Positions 8,883 through 20,625 of a stretch of 64,000 nt of DNA are shown here, one piece after another. Both the position numbers and the translations under genes were made by a program. Source of the DNA: Candidatus Latescibacterota bacterium. Lineage in GTDB: Bacteria; Latescibacterota; UBA2968; UBA8231. Numbering within the stretch: position 1 is the stretch's first letter; every line of letters starts with the position of its first letter. Where the stretch lies: positions 2,752,001 through 2,816,000 of the forward strand of contig OZ220089.1 in NCBI GenBank assembly GCA_964291625.2, in the 5' to 3' direction. The notes under the pieces are model-generated. The model was not told the DNA's origin. It saw only the letters and a program-made list of their open reading frames with translations, and made no database searches.

Positions 8883-10538
8883 TCAGCCGTCCACCTCGGG
8901 GACCTGCACCTCGGCCTCCAGCACCGTCCCCCGGAACCGCCCCGCGCCGTCCTGGATGCGGCCCACCGTCACCGGCAGGTCCGTCCGCACCAGCCGTCCC
9001 CGCCCCTGTCTCTCGGCGATCAGCTCGCCGTCGGCGAAGAGCCGCACGGCCTCCCCGTCGTACGTGCCCACCAGGTGATGCTCCCCCGCCGGCAGCGGCC
9101 GGGGCGCCCAGGCGCGCAGGCAGCCCCGGTCGGTGTTGACCAGGAAGCTGGGACCCGGCGCGCCGGCGTTGAGCCCGCCGTTGTGGCCCTGGTCGCACCA
9201 GCGCAGGCTGAACGAACCGCTGTCGCCGAGGGTGTCGCAGCGCAGGACGATGCCGTGGGTGACGAACTCCTCCGGGCGGCCGGGCTTGCGCCCCTGCTGC
9301 CAGGGAGCGGCGTAGAAGAACCGGCCGTCGAAGGCGCCGCCGTTGTAGCCGACGCTGTGGAGGCCGTCGGTGGCCGAGGCGTCGCGGGACTGCCAGCTCG
9401 ACGGGTCCTCGAAGGGGCGGGTCGCGTCGTAGCGCAGGTAGAAGGAGTGGAACAGGTTGTCGCGCTTTCCGGGGCCCACGTGCCGGAAGAAGGGCTGGAA
9501 GTAGACGAAGCGTCCGTCGAAGAAGCCGCCGTCGAAGCCGGTGGTGCGCAGGCCGCCGGTGGGGTCGGCGTCGTGGGCGGACCAGGCGTCCGGGTCGGCG
9601 AAGTCGCCGCGGGTGTCGAAGCGCACGATGCGGCCGTGGCCGTAGGCGCAGTAGTAGAGGAAGGTGCCGTCGAAGACGGCCCCGACCGCCATGCGGTAGC
9701 CGAGGGGCCGCGCGTCGAAGGCCTCCCACGAGGCCGGATCGTCGAAGGCCGCGGTCGTGTCGTGGCGGACGGCGAGGCCGTTCTCCAGGGGCACGAAGTA
9801 GGCGAAGCGGCCGTCGAAGGCGCCGCCGTCGAAGCACGCCGCCCGCGGCCCGAGGAAGTCCGTGATGTCCACGCTCGCATAGCTGGACCGGCTGGCGAAC
9901 TCCCCCCGCGTGTCGAAGCGCAGAACCCGGCCGCAGGGCTCGTCCTCCTTGTGGGGATCGCCGGAGAACCCCGGGCAGAAGTAGATGAAGCGGCCGTCGA
10001 AGGCGGCGCCCTGCTGCGAGTGGGCCTCGCCCATGTCGAAGGCCGACCAGCTGGCGGGGTCCTGGAAGTCGCCGGCCGTGTCGCAGCGCAGCAGGTGGCT
10101 GTGGTAGCGGTCCAGGTCGATCTGCCGGGGCACGAAGCAGACGTGGCGGCCGTCGAAGACGCCCCCGTAGTAGCCGCGGGTCTCCAGCCCCCCGGTGCGC
10201 CCCGCGTCGTACGCCCGGTAGCTGGCCGGATCGCGGAAGTCCCCGTGCGTGTCCAGCCGCAGGACCACGCCGTGGGTGGGATTCCCGGCCTCGCCGTGCT
10301 GCTCCGGCACGAAGTAGACGTAGCGGCCGTCGCAGACGGCGCCGAAGTAGCCGCGGCTCGGCAGGCCCCCGGTGGCGCCGGCGTCGAAGGCGGCGAACCC
10401 GGGCCACTCGTCGGGGGGCCGCCACTGGGAGACCAGGGCCTGCAGCGCCTCGGCGCGGCCGTCGTCGGCGGCCACCCGGGCGCTGACGGTCAGGGCCCCC
10501 CCGGGGGGAGCGGGGACGACCCGGAGGCCCTCGCTCAC
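8883..10538 (-). CDS. LamG/concanavalin-like domain with inserted 7-repeat beta-propeller (GxxFDGRxxYFxP repeats)
   Basis: GTG 10538 overlaps the upstream stop (GTGA); seven FDGR-type repeats; C-terminal HHLVGTYDGEAVRLFADG LamG motif. Confidence 0.75.
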   Translation of the reverse strand: MSEGLRVVPAPPGGALTVSARVAADDGRAEALQALVSQWRPPDEWPGFAAFDAGATGGLPSRGYFGAVCDGRYVYFVPEQHGEAGNPTHGVVLRLDTHGDFRDPASYRAYDAGRTGGLETRGYYGGVFDGRHVCFVPRQIDLDRYHSHLLRCDTAGDFQDPASWSAFDMGEAHSQQGAAFDGRFIYFCPGFSGDPHKEDEPCGRVLRFDTRGEFASRSSYASVDITDFLGPRAACFDGGAFDGRFAYFVPLENGLAVRHDTTAAFDDPASWEAFDARPLGYRMAVGAVFDGTFLYYCAYGHGRIVRFDTRGDFADPDAWSAHDADPTGGLRTTGFDGGFFDGRFVYFQPFFRHVGPGKRDNLFHSFYLRYDATRPFEDPSSWQSRDASATDGLHSVGYNGGAFDGRFFYAAPWQQGRKPGRPEEFVTHGIVLRCDTLGDSGSFSLRWCDQGHNGGLNAGAPGPSFLVNTDRGCLRAWAPRPLPAGEHHLVGTYDGEAVRLFADGELIAERQGRGRLVRTDLPVTVGRIQDGAGRFRGTVLEAEVQVPEVDG

Positions 10539-13099
10539 GAGCGCAGGACCTCCATGAGCGACATGTGCGGACGGCCGTACTCCTCGAGGTTGGACCAGCT
10601 CACGCGGCAGCCGGGGAAGGCCCGGCGCGCCGCGGCCTCGAAGAGCCGGCCGTTGAACCAGTCCACGGCGGAGCCGTCGAACTTGGCCGGCCCCTTGAAG
10701 CCCATGCGGTAGAGGCTGCGGCCTCGGCGGTTGCGGCGCCGGGGGACCTCGTGGTAGTCGGCGATGACCCGCACGATGAGGTCGATCAGCTCCAGCCCCC
10801 CCCGCGGGTGCAGGAGGTCGATGAGCAGCAGGCAGCCCTCGATGGAGCGGTTGGAGAGGTGCATCCAGACGTTGGGGGGGTACTCGTCGAGCACCTCCCG
10901 CAGGATCGCCGCCGGGTCGAGCTGCAGGCCGGCGAGGCGGCCCGGGTCGAGGAAGGAGAACCGGCCCAGGTCGGGGATGCGCACGTAGCGCTCCTCCAGC
11001 TTGAGCCCCGTGCCGCGGTCTTCCGGGTTGCCGTACAGGTCCTGCCAGAAGTGGTAGAACCGGAAGTCCCCCTCCTCCTCTCCGAGGCGCTCCCGGAAGC
11101 GCTCCCGGTAGCGGTCCAGGAAGGCGGAGGCGCCGGATCTCCCGATCGCCTCCAGCTCCTCCCGCAGCCGGTCCGCGTCGAGACCGTACTCCTCCGAGAG
11201 CAGCTCGACCTGCGGGCCGGGCAGGTAGAGGCGGGTCTCGATGGCGAAGCACTCGCCGTCGATCTGGGCCAGCTTGTCGTTGGGGAGGTTGTTGACGACG
11301 GAGGTCACGTGCACCCGCAGGACCCGCCCCCGGTAGCGTTCCAGCGGGGCCGTGGGCGCCTGGAGATCGGCCTGCACGTAGTCGAGGCGGAACCCCCGGC
11401 GCCGCTCGCCCAGCTCCTCCCGCGCCGCCTCGAGGGACGCCGGCGCGGCGTCGGCCAGCACGTAGCAGAGCGGCCCCGGCTCCAGGCGCCCGGCCCGGGC
11501 GAAGCGGGTCACCGTGTCGATGAACTCCCGGGCGTAGTCGACGCTGGAGACGCCGAACTCGACGTAGGCCAGCTCGGCGCCGGGGTCCTCGCCGCGGGCC
11601 TCGACGACCTGTTCCAGGAAGCGCCGGGCGTTGGCGCGCACCAGCTCCACGTCGGAGTCCGGGGAGCCGCTGATGCTGTCGCGGTAGTCGCGGCCGTGGG
11701 TGCCGACGTAGGCCCGCATGTGGCGCCAGAAGGTCTCGTTGAACTGCCACACCGGGCTCCGGCTGTAGGGCACCCAGTCCCCGATGACGGCGCCGCCCTC
11801 GCTCTCGGTGGAGCCGGCCCCGCGGCGGCGCAGGGCGGCGCCCACCGCCTCCTCGAGGGCGGTTCCGGTGTCGAGCTGGCGCACGTCGAGGGCCAGCTCC
11901 CACGTCTCCTCCGGCTCCCCCCCCGGGCCGACGAAGGGCCTGTAGGCGATGGGCACCCGGAAGTGCTGGGCGTAGGTGATGCGGTTCCAGTAGGTGCGGA
12001 AGGCGGGCCCGCCGGCCCCGGCCTCGACGACGCGCTCGAGGCTGCGCAGGGCGCCGCGGAAGGAGCGCACGTAGCCGTCGTCGCGCAGGCCGGGCTCGTG
12101 GACCACGGAGACGCCGCGGGTGCCAAGGTCGGCGCTCAGCAGGTCCACGTCGGAGCGGGCCCGCTCGCTCGGCGCCAGGCCCGCCGCCGACAGCACCGGC
12201 AGCAGGTCCGCGGTGCCGCTGATCGGCATCAGGTGGATGCCGGCGGCCCCGGGCAGCCGGCGGATGCGGCCGATCAGATCGGCGGACCAGCGGCGCTTGA
12301 AGGCGGTGAACTCCTCCTCGTCGAGGTCGCCCTCGGCGGCGCGGTAGTCGCGCAGCAGGGCGCGCGCCTCCGAGGAGCGGGTCCCGCAGCCGATCAGGAA
12401 GAGCCAGAACCGGAGCATCGCCGCCGAGCCGATCACGGGCACGCCGACCACCAGGGGGGTCGAGGTGAGACCGCGCGCGTGGGCTCTCTCCCACCAGGCC
12501 TCGTGGCGCTCCCACAGCAGCGGCGGCTGCAGCAGGATCGCCTGGGCTCCGGCGTCGATCTTGCGGGCCAGGCGGTCGACCCGCGCCTCGACCCGCCCCA
12601 CGAGGGGGTTCTCCACCGCCCACACGGGCAGCTCCGGCGGCAGCTGCCCCGACTCGCGCAGGCGGCGTGTCAGTTCCAGGGTCCGGAAGGCGTCCATCGG
12701 CAGCAGCGAGGCGCCGCCGGGGACCGCCCCCAGGCCGCGCCGCACCAGGTCCCCCCCCGAGAGCACCAGCAGCCCCCGGGCGCCGCCGCTCACGGCCCGC
12801 AGGATGCGGGCCTCCACCGTGCTCCGTGTGCGGGTTCCGGCGGCGATCGTGACGACCGGCTCGCGGGTCTCGTCCAGAACGTCGAAGAGGCTCTTGGGCC
12901 GCTCCCGGCGCCCGAAGAGGCGCACCGCGTCGCCGAGGCGGCCCACCAGCGGGATGTCGGGCAGGGTGACGGCGTCGACGGCGCCGCGCTCGATCAGCCG
13001 CGCATAGCGCGGCGCCTGCGCTGGGTGCGTTTGCTCGGCGGTGACCACGAACAGTCCGCGCCGCAGGCGGTCGGCGACGGGCGGGAGGGCGGCGGTCAC
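10535..13099 (-). CDS. fusion: MTHFR-like TIM barrel + class I SAM-dependent methyltransferase-like domain
   Basis: N-terminal VVTAE..DAVTLPD..LLVLSGGD..VWAVENP..RLARKIDAGAQAILLQP..GAAGIHLMP (MetF-like); C-terminal YVEFGVSS, YVLADA, VVNNLPND, LLHPRGGLELID; GTG overlaps the upstream stop. Confidence 0.72.
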   Translation of the reverse strand: MTAALPPVADRLRRGLFVVTAEQTHPAQAPRYARLIERGAVDAVTLPDIPLVGRLGDAVRLFGRRERPKSLFDVLDETREPVVTIAAGTRTRSTVEARILRAVSGGARGLLVLSGGDLVRRGLGAVPGGASLLPMDAFRTLELTRRLRESGQLPPELPVWAVENPLVGRVEARVDRLARKIDAGAQAILLQPPLLWERHEAWWERAHARGLTSTPLVVGVPVIGSAAMLRFWLFLIGCGTRSSEARALLRDYRAAEGDLDEEEFTAFKRRWSADLIGRIRRLPGAAGIHLMPISGTADLLPVLSAAGLAPSERARSDVDLLSADLGTRGVSVVHEPGLRDDGYVRSFRGALRSLERVVEAGAGGPAFRTYWNRITYAQHFRVPIAYRPFVGPGGEPEETWELALDVRQLDTGTALEEAVGAALRRRGAGSTESEGGAVIGDWVPYSRSPVWQFNETFWRHMRAYVGTHGRDYRDSISGSPDSDVELVRANARRFLEQVVEARGEDPGAELAYVEFGVSSVDYAREFIDTVTRFARAGRLEPGPLCYVLADAAPASLEAAREELGERRRGFRLDYVQADLQAPTAPLERYRGRVLRVHVTSVVNNLPNDKLAQIDGECFAIETRLYLPGPQVELLSEEYGLDADRLREELEAIGRSGASAFLDRYRERFRERLGEEEGDFRFYHFWQDLYGNPEDRGTGLKLEERYVRIPDLGRFSFLDPGRLAGLQLDPAAILREVLDEYPPNVWMHLSNRSIEGCLLLIDLLHPRGGLELIDLIVRVIADYHEVPRRRNRRGRSLYRMGFKGPAKFDGSAVDWFNGRLFEAAARRAFPGCRVSWSNLEEYGRPHMSLMEVLRS

Positions 13100-13875
13100 T
13101 TCCCGCGTCGGTCGGCGTACCCGCGCAGGGAGGCCACGTGCGACGACACTACCTGCAGACCGTAGGAGAGGGGGGTGCCCACGTTCAGGAAGCGGTAGCC
13201 CCAGTCGATCTTCTGGCGGATGTCGTCGGGCTCGGCCAGGGTCGTGCCCGTGACGATGCCGGTGCCCTCCAGCCGCCGGGGGACCTCCTCCATGATGCTC
13301 TGCACCTCTTTCGAGCCCGTCTGCCCCATCACTCCCAGGGACGCCGACAGGTCCAGGGGGCCCACCAGGATGATGTCGATGCCCGGCACGGCGGCGATCT
13401 CGTCCAGGCTCTCCCAGGCCTGCAGGCTCTCGAGCTGGCAGACCAGCAGGGTCTCGTCGTTGGCCGTGGCGAGGACGTGGTCCCAGTCCTCGCCGGCGAT
13501 CCTCGTCCACATGGGCGACAGGCCGCGGTTGCCCTCGGGCGGGTAGTGGGCCGCGTCGACGGCCCGGGCCGCCTCCTCGGCGGAGTTGACCTGGGGGATC
13601 ATGACCAGCACCGCCCCCACGTCGTAGGCCTTCTTGATCAGGCCCGGGTCGTTGTTGGCCACCCGGATCAGGGGCGCCACCCCCCGCTGCCGGGCGAGAA
13701 CGGGGATGACGTCGAGGGATTCGACCCCGTAGGGCATGTGCTCGGTGTCGATCCACAGGAAGTCGATCCCGGTGTCGAGGGTGGGGCCGGCGAAGTGGGG
13801 GGTGAAGGCCGGCAGGCCGGTGCCGAAGACGACCTGCCCGTCGGCGAGCTTCTGCTTGATCGGGTTGGGGTACAT
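13096..13875 (-). CDS. HpcH/HpaI aldolase family protein
   Basis: DFLWIDTEH, PLIRV, VMIPQV, YPPEGNRG, QLES and ILVGPLDLS motifs. Confidence 0.88.
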   Translation of the reverse strand: MYPNPIKQKLADGQVVFGTGLPAFTPHFAGPTLDTGIDFLWIDTEHMPYGVESLDVIPVLARQRGVAPLIRVANNDPGLIKKAYDVGAVLVMIPQVNSAEEAARAVDAAHYPPEGNRGLSPMWTRIAGEDWDHVLATANDETLLVCQLESLQAWESLDEIAAVPGIDIILVGPLDLSASLGVMGQTGSKEVQSIMEEVPRRLEGTGIVTGTTLAEPDDIRQKIDWGYRFLNVGTPLSYGLQVVSSHVASLRGYADRRGK

Positions 13876-15885: not shown

Positions 15886-17238
15886 TCAGGGGACCAGCCG
15901 CCGGCACTCCATGTAGTATCGCTTCTCCTCCGCCTCGCCGAGGGAGAAGCTCTTGCGCGGCAGCGGGCCGCTGCGCAGCACCGTGCGGAACAGGGCGTGC
16001 TTGTCGATCGACCGGGAGAGGAGCCCGGCGTTGCCGGCGCGCGAGCCCAGCTGCGTCGCCTCCTCCTCGCCGTGGATGTAGTCGAGGCGCAGGTCCCGCC
16101 GGGCGCCGAGGTCGGAGAGGAAGGCGTCCAGGGAGACGGCCTCGAGGTCGTGCCGGGGCTCGTGGACCACCACGATCCCCCACCGGGGCGCGCCGTCCCG
16201 GCCGGCGACGAAGGGCAGGTGATGCAGGCCCCGGGCCTCTAGGTCCTCCCGGGCCCGGCGCCAGGCCGCGGAAGAGTCGAAGGAATCGATCCGCGGCCGG
16301 CTGCCCTGCCCCCGGAAGAAGGCCTCCATCTCCCCCGCCAGCTCGCCGCCGTCGACGCCGAAGAGGACCCGGTGAATCGGCTCGAAGCGCAGCCCCGGGT
16401 CGTGCAGGTTGACCAGCTCCACGAGGGCGTGGCGCGACGAGTGGCCGGCCGCCTCGTCGAGACCGCCGGCCCGGTCGCGGATCCCGTCCCAGACCTGCCG
16501 GGCCGCGGCGAAGGAGTGGTTGCCGTCGCCCATGGCGTAGAGCGCCGGGGCGCCGTCCTCCAGGCCGTAGCGCCTGGCCAGGGCCTGCGGCGAGGCCAGC
16601 CGGGCGAGGGCGCCGGCGGCCTGACGGATCGCATCCTCCCCGGCCAAGTGCCAGCCGCGGACGCGGCCTCCGCCCAGCATCAGCTCCGTGTCGTAGAGGA
16701 GGGGCAGCGTCTCGTCGAAGAGGGGCTCGATGACCGTGGATTCCGGATCGTCGATGAGGACGAGGATGTGGGGCACCTCCAGGACCGCCCCCCGGCGGAC
16801 CTCCACCCGCGGCGGCAGGCGCCCGGGGTCGGTCCCCTCGGTCGTGCGGATCAGGGTCGAGGCGTCCGGGGAGAAGCTGTACTGCTCCAGGTCGAGGGCG
16901 GCGATCAGGCCCTTGCGCGAGGCGGCGTGCGGGGTGCTCCGGTCGACGAGCACGAAGCCGGGCTCCAGGGGCCGCAGGACCCCGTCGCGGAGGTAGCTCT
17001 CCATGCGCTCGTGGATGCCGCGAATCCGCCCGGAGCGGCCGGGCTCCTCCAGGAAGGCCTCGGGGAAGACCAAGTGCAGGGTGGAGGGGCGGCCCCCCAC
17101 GCGGCGGGCGGCCTCCTCCCAGTACCCCGGGTTGGAGGTGTGCTGGTCGCAGGCGATGACCGCCCACTCCTCGAGGGGCACGTCGGGGCGCGGCAGCAGG
17201 ACGCGGGGCACGCTGAGACCGATGTCGGGGAAGCGCAT
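15886..17238 (-). CDS. DUF1015 family protein
   Basis: WAVIACDQHTS, PSTLHLVFPE, LDLEQYSF, IRTTEGT, MGDGNHS and LPRKSFSLG motifs; ATG 17238. Confidence 0.85.
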   Translation of the reverse strand: MRFPDIGLSVPRVLLPRPDVPLEEWAVIACDQHTSNPGYWEEAARRVGGRPSTLHLVFPEAFLEEPGRSGRIRGIHERMESYLRDGVLRPLEPGFVLVDRSTPHAASRKGLIAALDLEQYSFSPDASTLIRTTEGTDPGRLPPRVEVRRGAVLEVPHILVLIDDPESTVIEPLFDETLPLLYDTELMLGGGRVRGWHLAGEDAIRQAAGALARLASPQALARRYGLEDGAPALYAMGDGNHSFAAARQVWDGIRDRAGGLDEAAGHSSRHALVELVNLHDPGLRFEPIHRVLFGVDGGELAGEMEAFFRGQGSRPRIDSFDSSAAWRRAREDLEARGLHHLPFVAGRDGAPRWGIVVVHEPRHDLEAVSLDAFLSDLGARRDLRLDYIHGEEEATQLGSRAGNAGLLSRSIDKHALFRTVLRSGPLPRKSFSLGEAEEKRYYMECRRLVP

Positions 17239-17406
17239 GGCGGCAGAGTGTAGCCGCGGCCGCGTACGGCAACAACGGCGGCGTCGGTGCTGGCTTGCCA
17301 GCAGCCGCGGGGGTAGCTTGGGAGCCCGCCGGGCAGCGGCTTCAGGTCGCCGCCGGCGACGCTCTCGACACCCTGGTGCCGGCATCTCGACATGGACCAC
17401 GCGGCG

Positions 17407-17626
17407 GCCGGACGGTGCGGATGGCCGCCGGACCGTGCACGCCCATCCTCGAGTCCGGGGATCGAGGCGATGGCGGTGCTCCCGGCTGCTCCTTCTGTTG
17501 GCGGCGGGGCAGCCGCCGGCCGGCGCGGATGGCCGCCGGCCCCGCGCGCACCCCTCCCTCGATCCCGGGGATCGAGCCATGACGGTGATCTCGACCTTGC
17601 TCCTTCTCGCGGCGGCGGGCGCCGCC
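17407..17626 (+). repeat. degenerate ~110-bp tandem duplication covering the start region of the FG-GAP gene
   Basis: Copy A 17407-17514 and copy B 17515-~17626 share gcggatggccgccgg, cctcga..ccggggatcgag, atg.cggtg.tc and tgctccttct..ggcggcggg. Confidence 0.7.
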
Positions 17627-20625
17627 GCTCCGGCCGTGGCAGAGGGGTCCGGCCAGTGGCTGCAGCTGCGCGGCGACCGGCACATGAGCGGCCGCGCCGC
17701 CGGCACCGGCCGCATGGCGGACGGCCCCCCCGCCGAGGCCTGGCGCCATGACATCGCCGCCTGGGAGGGCTACGCATCGGTGGGGGCGGGCGCGGGCGAC
17801 CCGGTGGTGCGCCTGCCCTTCCCCGGGGACCTCGACGCCGGATGGATCTGGCGGGAGCGGGCGGCCTGGGGGCTGGGCCCGCAGCTCCACGACTTGGCCG
17901 GCGACGGCACCCTCGTCCCCATGTCCGTGTACAACGTCTACAAGGTGGCCGCGATCCTGCCCGGGGTGGCCGGCCTGCAGCGCTTCGAGATGGGCGACTC
18001 CTTCTCCGATGGCGGAGCGGAGCCGAAGCGGGGCCGGCTCCTGGCCTACGACACCGGCGAGCCCCGCGTCGTGTGGGAGACCGAGCCCTTCGAGAACACC
18101 TGGGCCCCCAACGTCATCGTCGTCGACGCCGACGCCGACGGCCAGCTCGACCTGGCGGTAGCCACCCACTACCGCATCCTCGTCTTCGACGGAGCCACGG
18201 GCGCCACCATGATGGAGTTCCGCTACCACGACTACCGCAACTACGGCCTCTTCGCCGCCGCCGACATCGACGACGACCCCTATCCCGAGTTCGCCGTCGT
18301 CGCCGACTTCAGCATGCACGCCGAGGTCGTCGACAACGACGGCCGCGGGCTGACCCTGCGCTGGATCCGCGAGATCCAGCCCGATCCGTCACAGACGACC
18401 AAGGTCGTGCGTCCCCGGCCCTCGGCCTTTCTCGACGCCGACGGGGACGGCGCCGTGGAGGTCGTCTACAGCGTTTACGACGACACCGGGGACCGCCGCT
18501 GGCACACGATCGCCGTCGATGCCCTCAGCGGCGAGACGGTCCACGACCTTGCCGGGTGGTACCTCCACGGCCTGCACGACATCGACGCCGACGGCCGGCC
18601 GGAGTGGTTCCTGTCGCAGGCGGAGGGGGAGGCGCTGCCTCCCTACGCGCCGCTGACGGTGCGGACCCTCGACGGCGGCGGCTACGTGGAGCGCTGGAAC
18701 CACGACGGCGCCGCCTTCAGCAGCCGGCCGCTGACCGAGCTGCCCCTGACGGTGAGCACGAGCGCCTCCGACGGTCTGCGCACGGCGGTCACCGGCGACG
18801 CCGACGGCGACGGCCGGGCCGACTTCTTCGTGGTCACCCCCGCGGGCGAGGGGGAAGCGCTGACCGCCTGGGGTGCTGGCGCCGGAGGGGCCGTTCAGGC
18901 CCTGTGGACGCTCCAGGGGCCGGTGGCCGCCCGCCTGCAGGCAGAAGCCGTGGCCGACGGGGGCGCCGGCCCCGCCACGCTGGCGTGGTGGCAAGGGCGG
19001 GGCGGCGGCGGGCAGTCCCTTCGGGTGGAGGGGGCCGGCGCGCGGCTGCACCAGTTCAGCCGCCAGGACTTCACCCCCGCCGGCACCCCCGTGGTGGCCG
19101 ATCTCGATGGCGACGGCCGCGTCGAGGTGGTGGTGCAGACGGCCAACGAGGAGGTCCTCTGCCTGGAGGCCCCGGTCGCGGCGACGGGGAGGCCCGCGTC
19201 CGCTGGCAGATGCAGGGCCACGGGCAGACGAACAGCGCCCCCTGGCATTGGGGAGTGGTCGCCTCCGACCTCGACGGCGACGGCTCCCTGGAGACGCTCT
19301 TCGCCCGCGAGGCGCCAGGCGGCAACGCCAGCCTGGCGGCGGTCACCGCCGCGGGCGAGATCCTCTGGCAGACCGTCTTCGACGGCTTCGACGGCAGCAT
19401 GCCGATCTGGAACTTCAGCGGCCTCTCCTGGTGGAACACCGGCCACTTCCGCGAGGCCGGGCGCAACGACGTCTTCGTCACCCTGCGCCGCGGCAAGATC
19501 GGCAGCGAGGTCGGTTTCCTCCTCGACGGCGGGACCGGCGCCGTCGTCTGGGAGAGGAACGGCTACACCCTGCCCGTCGACGGCAGCGGCCGCAGCCTCG
19601 GGGGCCATCCGAGCGCCGCCGGCGACGTCGACGGCGACGGCCTGGAGGAGATCGTGGTCATGTGGCCGGACCGGCTCCACGTGGTCGACGGCGTCACCGG
19701 CGACGCCCAGGTCGTGCGCCAGGCCTACGGGGCCGGGCTGTCGCCCATGTTCTCCGCTCCCGCCTTCGTGGGGTACGCCTTCCCGGCGCTGGTCGACCTC
19801 TTCGGGGACCCGGCGCCGGAGCTGATCTGGGGCCACTGCGGCTACCTGAACGCCGTGCTCTCGGCCGCCGGCGACGTCTGGTGGCAGACGGAGTACCTCA
19901 ACAACACCCAGGTGCAATCGCTCATGGTTCCGGGTGACGCCGACGGCGATGGCGACCTGGAGCTGCTGGCCTCCACCGCGGAGGGGGTGCAACTGCTGGA
20001 GCCCGCCGACGGCGCCGTGCTGCAGGCGATCGACCTGGGTCCCGCCACGACCGACGTGGTCTCCGGCGACCTCGACGGCGATGGCCGGGACGAGTTCCTC
20101 CTCGGGCTGGGCGGACGCCGCTGGGCCCTCCCCGGGGATCCCGGCCTGGCCATGGTGGAGCTGGAGGCCGGCGAGCTGCGCAACGCCTGGACCTTGGAGA
20201 CCGGGGGCCGGCCGAGCGACCCGGCCCTGGCCGATGTCGACGCCGACGGCTTCCTCGACCTCGCTGCGACCACCACGGACGGCTACGTGAGGGCCTGGAC
20301 CGGAGGCGCGGTGACCGCCGTGAGCGGCCCCCTGGCCGTCCTCCCCGCGGCGGCCCGGCTGGAGCCGCCCTGGCCGAACCCCTTCAACCACCGGGTCACC
20401 ATCGCCTACCGGATCGAGGAGGCGGGGCCCGTGCGCCTGGAGGTGTTCTCCACGACCGGGCAGCGCCTGCTGCGGCTGGTCGATGGCTGGAGGCCCGCCG
20501 GGGACCACCGGGCGCTCTGGGATGGTCTCGACGCCCGGGGGCGGCCCCTGGCCAGCGGCGCCTACGTGGTCCGCCTGCGCAGCGGAGAGGTGGTGGACCA
20601 GCGCAAGATCGCCCTGCTCAAGTAG
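17579..20625 (+). CDS. secreted FG-GAP/VCBS-repeat protein with C-terminal FlgD-Ig/T9SS-type domain; 1-nt frameshift near 19172
   Basis: Signal peptide MTVISTLLLLAAAGAAAPAVA; many DxDGDG repeats in two successive frames; C-terminal PWPNPFN..LEVFSTTGQ..LWDGLD..LASGAYVVRL..RKIALLK; frames join at the C4 run 19170-19173. Confidence 0.8.

Follow-up and report, generated by a model that had tools for sequence, protein, structure and literature searches.

Gene and domain organisation

The window (the whole stretch of DNA analysed: 64,000 nucleotides from a Candidatus Latescibacterota bacterium, assembly GCA_964291625.2, contig OZ220089.1, positions 2,752,001 to 2,816,000) has a GC content of approximately 72% and contains a gene predicted to encode a barrel of the methylenetetrahydrofolate reductase (MTHFR) family joined to a class I methyltransferase fold. 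The gene occupies window positions 10535..13099 on the minus strand and runs for 854 uninterrupted codons from a GTG start (13099-13097) to a TGA stop (10537-10535). An earlier reading of this DNA, made from its letters alone (the sequence-only reading), had reported the 854-amino-acid open reading frame (ORF) without stating a strand; the frame is as reported, the strand is minus, and all six motifs that had been quoted are present in the translation: TAE (residues 20-22), LSGGD (113-117), ENP (163-165), KIDAGAQAILLQP (180-192), GIHLMP (287-292) and EFGVSS (514-519). GC content at codon positions 1, 2 and 3 is 0.76/0.50/0.97, with third-position values of 0.93-0.99 across all 300-nt slices of the gene; the corresponding values for the antisense ORF of 866 amino acids are 0.96/0.51/0.76, and a plus-strand reading of 10535..13099 was rejected, the frame there being only a GC-rich shadow. 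The GTG start has a GGGA a few bases upstream and matches the N-termini of full-length homologues, for example P0005, which begins MTAAVPPVADRL.

Three regions can be distinguished within the protein. Residues 1-315 (12155..13099, minus strand) form a divergent MTHFR-family (beta/alpha)8 barrel of what we term the 'TQPP' subfamily, assigned from structure matches, a profile, motifs and a tree; residues 316-436 (11792..12154, minus strand) comprise a linker helix and a beta-rich subdomain, delimited by secondary structure and conserved columns; and residues 437-854 (10538..11791, minus strand) have a predicted class I methyltransferase fold of the MidA/COG1565 type, assigned from VIA-align, Foldseek and the Pfam hits of relatives.

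That the N-terminal 310 or so amino acids resemble MTHFR, as had been proposed, holds for both fold and homology by Foldseek, VIA-align and a family profile. The AlphaFold model of the whole protein, built from a 41-sequence alignment, has a mean pLDDT of 90.5 and a pTM of 0.86. The best Foldseek matches of the barrel in the PDB are all MTHFRs (top match 8eac_A; prob 1.00, E 8.2e-10, TMt 0.73), and VIA-align against 48,161 representative chains gave 3apt_A with a Z of 25.2 (rmsd 3.3, 273 aligned, residues 6-311), with weaker matches to 3ijd, a methyl-tetrahydrofolate-binding MTHFR-like protein (Z 20.6), and to the flavin-independent reductase 8bgr (Z 18.2). A profile of the N-terminal half and 22 free-standing relatives found human MTHFR (6fcx, E 3.3e-13) and the Thermus enzyme (E 1.3e-10) in the PDB. 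With the protein as a single sequence, there was no PDB match at E <= 1, and the only NCBIfam match was one of 14 bits to a bifunctional homocysteine S-methyltransferase/MTHFR model. The four full-length homologues that were tested against Pfam PF02219 all pass, at 25.5-45.2 bits.

Four substrate-side positions of MTHFR, A to D, were defined by Gehl et al., with the catalytic acid Glu28 of the Escherichia coli enzyme as position A (passages of PMC11094777). In an alignment of 17 full-length homologues, position A, at the end of beta-1, is Glu22 and is invariant (17/17), its motif F-V-[IV]-T-x-E aligning with MTHFRs of the methionine operons described below. Position C, the pterin-binding Gln183 of E. 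coli, corresponds to Gln191, also invariant (17/17), which lies over the T-Q of the human and Thermus enzymes. Position D, the pterin-binding Asp120 at the end of beta-4, is Gly116, as the L-R-G-D of the human and Thermus enzymes falls over S-G-G/S here; the neighbouring Asp117 varies among homologues (D, G or H). The protein thus shares with FAD-dependent MTHFR (MetF) the barrel fold (Z 25.2), profile similarity (E 3e-13), the catalytic Glu and the pterin Gln; it differs by the Gly at the Asp120 position, a 7-residue gap against the canonical Y-P-E/K-G-H-P-E loop on the flavin side, T-Q-P-P by comparison with the canonical T-Q-F/L, a Pfam score below cut-off and a C-terminal extension of approximately 540 amino acids.

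The flavin-independent reductase Mfr of Mycobacterium (8bgr, 7wmz) is a divergent barrel too, likewise with the Glu and Gln in place and the canonical Asp missing, although both the structural match (Z 18.2) and the sequence match to it are weaker than to the FAD-dependent enzymes and Mfr has no fused domain. In Mfr, Glu55 in the loop after beta-2 takes the role of Asp120 (passages of bioRxiv 10.1101/2022.11.18.516900); at the same place, directly after the predicted strand 43-46, the protein studied here has Asp48, invariant in the 17 homologues. By analogy, Asp48 may stand in for Asp120 and the barrel may work without flavin.

A FastTree phylogeny of 52 barrels resolved two groups with a local support of 99. 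One holds 22 MTHFRs with T-G-D and T-Q motifs, comprising the operon partners, fusions of the P0043 type described below and the canonical copy in the same genome as the window; the other holds 30 sequences with S-G-G/S and T-Q-P-P motifs, namely the clade of the fused protein and its free-standing relatives. Two sequences in this tree, L080 and L085, were mislabelled by a regular expression, and their aligned motifs are M-T-G-D. The nearest sequence relatives of the barrel are the MTHFRs of methionine operons. Many of the free-standing 'TQPP' relatives (P0072, P0085, P0089, P0093, P0182, P0137) have long N-terminal extensions, and they include proteins labelled hypothetical from the green algae Trebouxia and Symbiochloris.

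From approximately residue 350 the protein matches free-standing proteins of about 480-560 amino acids, and a separate model of residues 320-854 (the C-domain) has a pLDDT of 92.9. The sequence-only reading had proposed a class I S-adenosylmethionine (SAM) methyltransferase fold here, and Foldseek and VIA-align concur: given the predicted structure, the class I fold is certain. The best Foldseek matches are the COG1565 structures 4f3n (E 1.6e-8) and 4g67 (E 2.6e-8), MidA (5zu0_A, E 1.1e-6, with 5ztz at approximately 1e-6) and then 1zkd. VIA-align gave 5ztz_A (Z 17.7, 292/401 aligned), 1zkd_B (Z 17.5, 268 aligned) and 4g67 (Z 16.1), and with the whole-protein model 5ztz_A (Z 17.5) and 1zkd_B (Z 16.9). 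Other class I methyltransferases reach Z 15-16.5 over approximately 200 residues, so that the margin of MidA is small, at 1-2 units, and the assignment to MidA/COG1565 is made because of match coverage and the Pfam hits of relatives: P0056 and P0066 exceed the PF02636 cut-off, at 29.1 and 24.7 bits respectively, and P0027-P0032 fall just below it at 14.9-19 bits. A protein language-model atlas pointed, as a lead only, to clusters of ~500-aa Methyltransf_28-type proteins (score 0.90).

The C-domain thus resembles the protein arginine methyltransferase family MidA/NDUFAF7/COG1565 (PF02636) in giving its best and longest structural matches, in having relatives that pass the Pfam model and in carrying a motif IV of the N-x-x-x-D-x-L-P type, which we take to be the MidA version of this motif. 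It differs in sequence (8-14% identity to the MidA/COG1565 structures), in its G-V-S-S loop, in an extra N-terminal beta-rich subdomain and in a genomic tie to MTHFR and methionine synthase as opposed to complex I. The extra subdomain (residues 320-436) carries conserved YWNRI, HFR and WELA.D.RQ motifs and is common to the free-standing relatives; it was not covered by any structural match listed for the C-domain model, a comparison in which that part was barely tested.

Eukaryotic MTHFR (6fcx, 8qa4-6, 8uy1/2) has the same layout, a barrel and then a large domain with the potential to bind SAM or S-adenosylhomocysteine (SAH), but it aligns with the fused protein through the barrel only (approximately 315-337 columns, TMt 0.37-0.41), and the C-domain here has a Rossmann-type methyltransferase fold. 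Eukaryotic MTHFR entries were not among the matches listed for the C-domain model, an absence that by itself excludes nothing. Because the C-domain fold differs, any functional likeness to eukaryotic MTHFR would be convergent.

Motif I of the C-domain had been called degenerate. As a description of sequence this is accurate, with E-F-G-V-S-S-V at residues 514-520 (11540..11560, minus strand) in place of E-x-G-x-G-x-G; as a verdict it misleads, since E-[IF]-G-[VI]-[AS]-S is a conserved subfamily signature. The motif reads E-I-G-[VI]-A-S in the clade of the fused protein and E-[LI]-G-V-G-x-G in more distant free-standing relatives. An IQ-TREE phylogeny (quick mode; 74 rows, left from 133 sequences after redundancy filtering had brought these down to 80 and six fragments had been dropped) has a branch of length 1.07 (SH-aLRT 100) parting 42 canonical from 32 non-canonical rows, and the fused protein lies on the non-canonical side in a 13-row clade (support 97); the inner order of the non-canonical half is unsafe owing to long branches. 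In the 32 non-canonical rows the second glycine is replaced by alanine in 91% and the third position is never glycine.

The pocket around this loop is largely kept. There are 94 columns conserved at >= 90% in the canonical subfamily, of which 52 are identical in the fused protein and 39 persist in >= 80% of the non-canonical subfamily, including E514, G516, D550, N600, D603, N604, P606, W685, E703/R704, H764, G767, D773, K806 and W814. The fused protein itself has S at 600 and N at 603, with E514, G516, D550 and N604-L605-P606 present. Asp550, at the end of beta-2 and presumably the ribose-hydroxyl-binding acid of class I methyltransferases, is invariant in one C-domain alignment and present at 97-100% in both subfamilies. 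As the pocket is largely kept and the loss is specific to the second and third glycines, the change in motif I is not decay.

Distribution of the fusion and operons of its relatives

An assembly chimera had been named as an objection to the fusion, and 19 full-length homologues and 13 genomic loci rule it out. A word-indexed protein search returned 28 matches, 19 of which span 98-100% of the query (844-894 amino acids, 44-95% identity); the other nine are three partial matches and six proteins of approximately 500 amino acids that match only the C-terminal 55-57%. A pattern search of contigs, with one genome per species, confirmed 13 of 18 matches, and in all 13 confirmed loci the frame is fused: five in Latescibacterota/Latescibacteria, four in Poribacteria, two in Gemmatimonadaceae, one in Omnitrophica and one in an unclassified bacterium. 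Several of these loci sit on megabase contigs or chromosomes. Within the GTDB phylum of the window the C-domain occurs in 9/168 genomes and 4/49 genera, always in open frames of 852-1119 amino acids, and across the 17 aligned full-length homologues it is conserved to the same degree as the barrel. The fused gene is therefore real and conserved, with a patchy distribution; homologues are named 'hypothetical' or 'methylenetetrahydrofolate reductase' in public records.

To place the C-domain, metagenomes were scanned with a C-domain alignment, which confirmed at least 577 of 599 pattern stretches. The best 80 loci (L015-L094) were sorted by motif I and searched with query proteins that Pfam had identified at 10 sampled loci. 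At 76/80 loci the free-standing relative carries the canonical ExGxGxG motif, and in 73 of these 76 the gene directly downstream, on the same strand, has approximately 335-365 codons and encodes only the Meth_synt_2 domain ('core MetE'); the envelopes of the hidden Markov models lie a median of 20 bp apart (range -10 to 306). Of the three canonical loci lacking it, two offer just 21 and 425 bp of sequence downstream, and the third, L039, offers 2 kb. The order MidA-like then core MetE is constant whether MTHFR lies upstream or downstream.

Other genes of one-carbon metabolism were counted at the same 80 loci, many of whose contigs end before partner genes could appear: MTHFR at 56/80, DUF5981 at 47/80, formate-tetrahydrofolate ligase (FTHFS) at 20/80, MetK at 7/80, PurU at 4/80 and homocysteine S-methyltransferase at 4/80. 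The MTHFR count comes from a clean query; the L017 query, which had an over-extended 5' part plus DUF5981 and gave 67, was discarded. Two gene orders recur: MidA-like, core MetE, MTHFR/DUF5981, (FTHFS); and DUF5981, MTHFR, MidA-like, core MetE, MetK. The operon MTHFRs carry canonical L/M-T-G-D and T-Q motifs. The nearest NCBIfam model to the operon core MetE is 'methionine synthase' PRK04326 (294 bits against a cut-off of 406), and the free-standing C-domain family is without an NCBIfam model. Operons of MidA-like, core MetE and MTHFR/DUF5981 genes, with or without FTHFS, MetK and PurU, abound in metagenomes.

Where the loop is non-canonical (four loci: L015, L016, L018 and L036) there is no core MetE within approximately 5 kb downstream (0/4), and at all four MTHFR/DUF5981 is fused or nearby; at L018 an MTHFR-DUF5981-MidA-like fusion has a homocysteine S-methyltransferase gene directly upstream. 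An exhaustive search of representatives gave 433 matches at E <= 1e-3 in several architectures. P0043 and P0050 combine a canonical MTHFR (81 and 74 bits) with DUF5981, the MetV-type 'MTHFR C-terminal' domain, and the C-domain; P0034 has an AAA-like N-terminus before the didomain; and P0033 of Omnitrophica (2863 amino acids; L013:5654-14245, plus strand) has AceK regulatory and kinase domains, the didomain and an HMGL-like domain. Upstream of P0033 is a gene for a 1720-amino-acid protein with an isocitrate lyase domain (L013:386-5548, plus strand), and riboflavin synthesis genes follow it.

Several independent fusions and the shared methionine/SAM-cycle operons show that the MTHFR and MidA-like families are functionally linked. 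By its loop sequence (G-V-A/S-S), the protein in the window is a member of a sister subfamily whose domains are joined to MTHFR or lie next to it, with no core synthase adjoining; by comparison with the core-MetE-linked MidA-like subfamily it is fused, has a non-canonical loop and leaves the core synthases of its own genome unlinked.

Both domain families were already known; what is new is the near-obligate operon pairing of the free-standing C-domain relatives with core synthases. This pairing recalls the core methionine synthases MesA-D, in that MesX is likewise paired with the Meth_synt_2-only synthase MesD, but the partner here has a methyltransferase fold and is not DUF1852, and the operon includes MTHFR, while MesD has no need of MetF (passages of PMC7857596). 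Term searches within PMC7857596 returned no mention of a MidA-like partner, and exact-term searches of the open-access literature found no paper on an MTHFR/MidA-like fusion or a MidA-like/core-MetE operon, with prior work elsewhere being possible. Two other systems were set aside: the Phaeocystis MetE fusion has a different architecture (PP-binding, core MetE and Pyr_redox_2; passages of PMC10861871), and MtgC/MtgD is a cobalamin-based system and unrelated (abstract of PMC12478193). Outside the corrinoid-linked cases, the methyl donor of core synthases is presented as an open question (passages of PMC7857596). The 73/76 pairing supplies a concrete and testable candidate partner for methionine synthases that lack a folate domain, and the MidA-like family may help to explain how such minimal synthases obtain their methyl group.

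A proposed role in the methyl cycle, and its alternatives

The genome that contains the window is 95% complete. It has a single MidA-like domain, that of the fused protein, and two MTHFR-type barrels, the second being in a canonical homocysteine S-methyltransferase/MTHFR fusion on another contig (PF02574, 166 bits; PF02219, 78.7 bits). The statement of the sequence-only reading that bacterial MetF is normally stand-alone is therefore only loosely true, as the canonical MTHFR of this very genome is fused to a homocysteine methyltransferase domain. Three short Meth_synt_2 genes were found, all outside the window (C1:1335087-1336037, C2:822747-823649 and C1:2396771-2397733); the best, L096 (342 amino acids), scores 142 bits against the operon core MetEs and keeps the His/Cys/Glu/Cys columns. 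Neither the MetE N-terminal domain nor the MetH activation domain had a match in this genome. Core-MetE-like genes also occur elsewhere in 4/5 other fusion-carrying genomes, the Omnitrophica genome having none with the core MetE query. A related 8.4-Mb genome has nine matches to this query, which, with the three short genes and the absence of a match to the MetE N-terminal domain in the window's genome, suggests that the MetE-like methyltransferase family is expanded in these lineages. As a further observation, a pterin-binding domain (83 bits; C2:859416-860021) lies in a 1219-amino-acid open frame of the window's genome, which may be a MetH-type variant.

We consider it about an even chance (a probability of roughly 0.5) that the fused protein acts in the methionine/SAM methyl cycle with a C-domain whose binding of an adenosyl ligand ties reductase activity to methylation status; that it works in methionine synthesis is probable. 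The protein would be a fused, derived form of the module of MidA-like, core MetE and MTHFR proteins. Its C-domain would bind SAM or SAH and so tune the attached reductase to methylation status, and the output of the reductase would go to the genome's core methionine synthase, which is encoded at an unlinked locus. In function the protein would parallel the SAM-regulated eukaryotic MTHFR while using an unrelated fold; if so, bacteria have made a SAM-regulated MTHFR from a fold unlike the eukaryotic one. A SAM/SAH sensor is preferred because Asp550 and most of the pocket are kept, because the fusion with MTHFR mirrors eukaryotic regulatory logic and because SAM cannot be a net supplier of methionine's methyl groups, an argument made for Mmp10 (passages of PMC7857596).

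A number of observations weigh against this proposal. The loss of the second and third glycines of motif I could mean that SAM binding has been lost, which would undercut a SAM sensor, and the conservation of motif IV together with a size of approximately 500 amino acids would fit a catalytic methyltransferase at least equally with a sensor. Neither half of the protein is recognised by its Pfam model: PF02219 scores 14 bits (E 0.033), below the 24-bit gathering cut-off, and PF02636 (cut-off 23.3 bits) has no match at E <= 1. The barrel can function without the C-domain, as stand-alone relatives exist, green algae included, and occurrence in the phylum is patchy (9/168 genomes). The gene adjoins no core methionine synthase or methionine gene, only envelope-glycan genes and an aldolase, and this set of neighbours is common only to the closest relatives and differs among homologues. 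At gathering score, Rfam gave 0 matches in the window, to a SAM riboswitch or any other, and in 15 related loci a single tRNA and no riboswitch.

The first alternative to a sensor is a methyl relay, in which the MidA-like protein or domain would be the donor-side partner of zinc-dependent homocysteine methyltransferases without a folate domain (of the core MetE or homocysteine S-methyltransferase type), with a role like that of MesX for MesD; the fused protein would then make methyl-tetrahydrofolate and deliver the methyl group as part of a B12-independent multi-component methionine synthase. In its favour, core MetE directly follows the canonical MidA-like gene at 73/76 loci wherever MTHFR sits, and the homocysteine S-methyltransferase gene directly upstream of the fusion at L018 is also in keeping with it. 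Moreover, characterised core synthases use no methyl-tetrahydrofolate and need a partner or corrinoid (passages of PMC7857596; abstract of PMC7005905), and the genome studied here has core MetE with no MetE N-terminal domain detected. However, the subfamily linked to core MetE keeps a textbook SAM motif although SAM is no net methyl source (passages of PMC7857596), and the fused protein belongs to the very subfamily that does not adjoin core MetE. We consider a relay unlikely overall, at perhaps one chance in five, and the same holds for its wider form, in which a fifth kind of core methionine synthase would have MidA-like proteins as its donor-side partner and the fusion would be a single-chain unit for making and delivering methyl groups in Gemmatimonadota, Latescibacterota and Poribacteria. 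Were it correct, the fused protein and an unlinked core MetE would together allow B12-independent methionine synthesis. A further difficulty for the relay is that, to our knowledge, methyl-folate is not used by any class I methyltransferase fold.

Slightly less probable again is a working SAM-dependent methyltransferase, acting on protein arginine as MidA does, on a small molecule or on a glycan, with the reductase raising the local methyl supply, which is the channelling idea of the sequence-only reading. Among solved structures the nearest relatives are methyltransferases of the MidA type, motif IV is conserved along with many residues of the pocket, and active methyltransferases with imperfect glycine loops or single-residue departures from GxGxG exist; the genes beside the fused gene in the window are polysaccharide genes (glycosyltransferase 2, priming sugar transferase, deacetylase and UppP). 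On the other hand, the second and third loop glycines are replaced throughout the subfamily and the glycan neighbourhood is kept only in closer relatives. Nor can an MTHFR product pass straight to a SAM-dependent enzyme: the steps of methionine synthase and MetK come in between, and the fusion therefore gives no channelling.

We regard as improbable a function outside folate metabolism, in which the barrel would have been recruited for another substrate, for example a sugar acid formed or split by the adjoining aldolase, in envelope or sugar-acid metabolism. The lost Asp120 equivalent, the shortened flavin-side loop and the 4-nt GTGA overlap with the aldolase gene point this way, as do homologues L007 and L008, which lie amid enolase-superfamily, aldo-keto reductase and GFO/IDH/MocA genes, and the Omnitrophica fusion with an HMGL-like aldolase-type domain after an isocitrate-lyase gene. 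Against it, the catalytic Glu and pterin Gln are invariant (17/17 aligned full-length homologues), the nearest sequence relatives of the barrel are the methionine-operon MTHFRs and no neighbour is common to distant homologues. Finally, an ordinary housekeeping MetF with an inert extra domain, as the public name of some homologues would have it, is very improbable, given that the genome carries a separate canonical MTHFR (78.7 bits against 14 bits in Pfam), that the gene is in only 9/168 genomes of the phylum and that the C-domain is conserved as strongly as the barrel.

Neighbouring genes

Immediately upstream of the fused gene is a gene for an HpcH/HpaI-family aldolase of 259 amino acids (13096..13875, minus strand; PF03328, 104.7 bits), whose stop codon overlaps the GTG start in the sequence GTGA (13096..13099, minus strand); from these overlapping codons, the two genes may be translationally coupled. 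The nearest NCBIfam models to the aldolase are 2-keto-3-deoxy-sugar-acid aldolases, all scoring below their cut-offs. The aldolase is not the adjoining gene in the distant homologues with scanned upstream DNA (L006-L009 and L013), and the L005 contig ends at the start of the gene. Other neighbours encode UppP, a DUF1015 protein, a LamG-type protein, a PhyH-family dioxygenase, a priming sugar transferase, a family-2 glycosyltransferase, an epimerase and a deacetylase. This glycan neighbourhood is absent at the Poribacteria, Omnitrophica and L006-L008 loci; homologues elsewhere lie in sugar-acid-type clusters, beside a cell-division cluster or after the isocitrate-lyase gene.

Two apparent correspondences between loci were rejected. 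PhyH genes lie near the fused gene in the window, L007 and L008 but are not orthologous (BLASTP E 0.049; E 3e-4 at 23% identity), and the downstream LamG-type protein is unrelated to the upstream gene in Poribacteria. The DUF1015 protein is a 622-amino-acid ORF (15886-17754, minus strand) in which DUF1015 covers residues 195-481 only, with long flanking parts and no NCBIfam match. Two large probable surface proteins flank the operon (17842-20625, plus strand, and 8883-10475, minus strand), one with FG-GAP repeats and a FlgD-Ig domain and the other with a LamG_3 domain.

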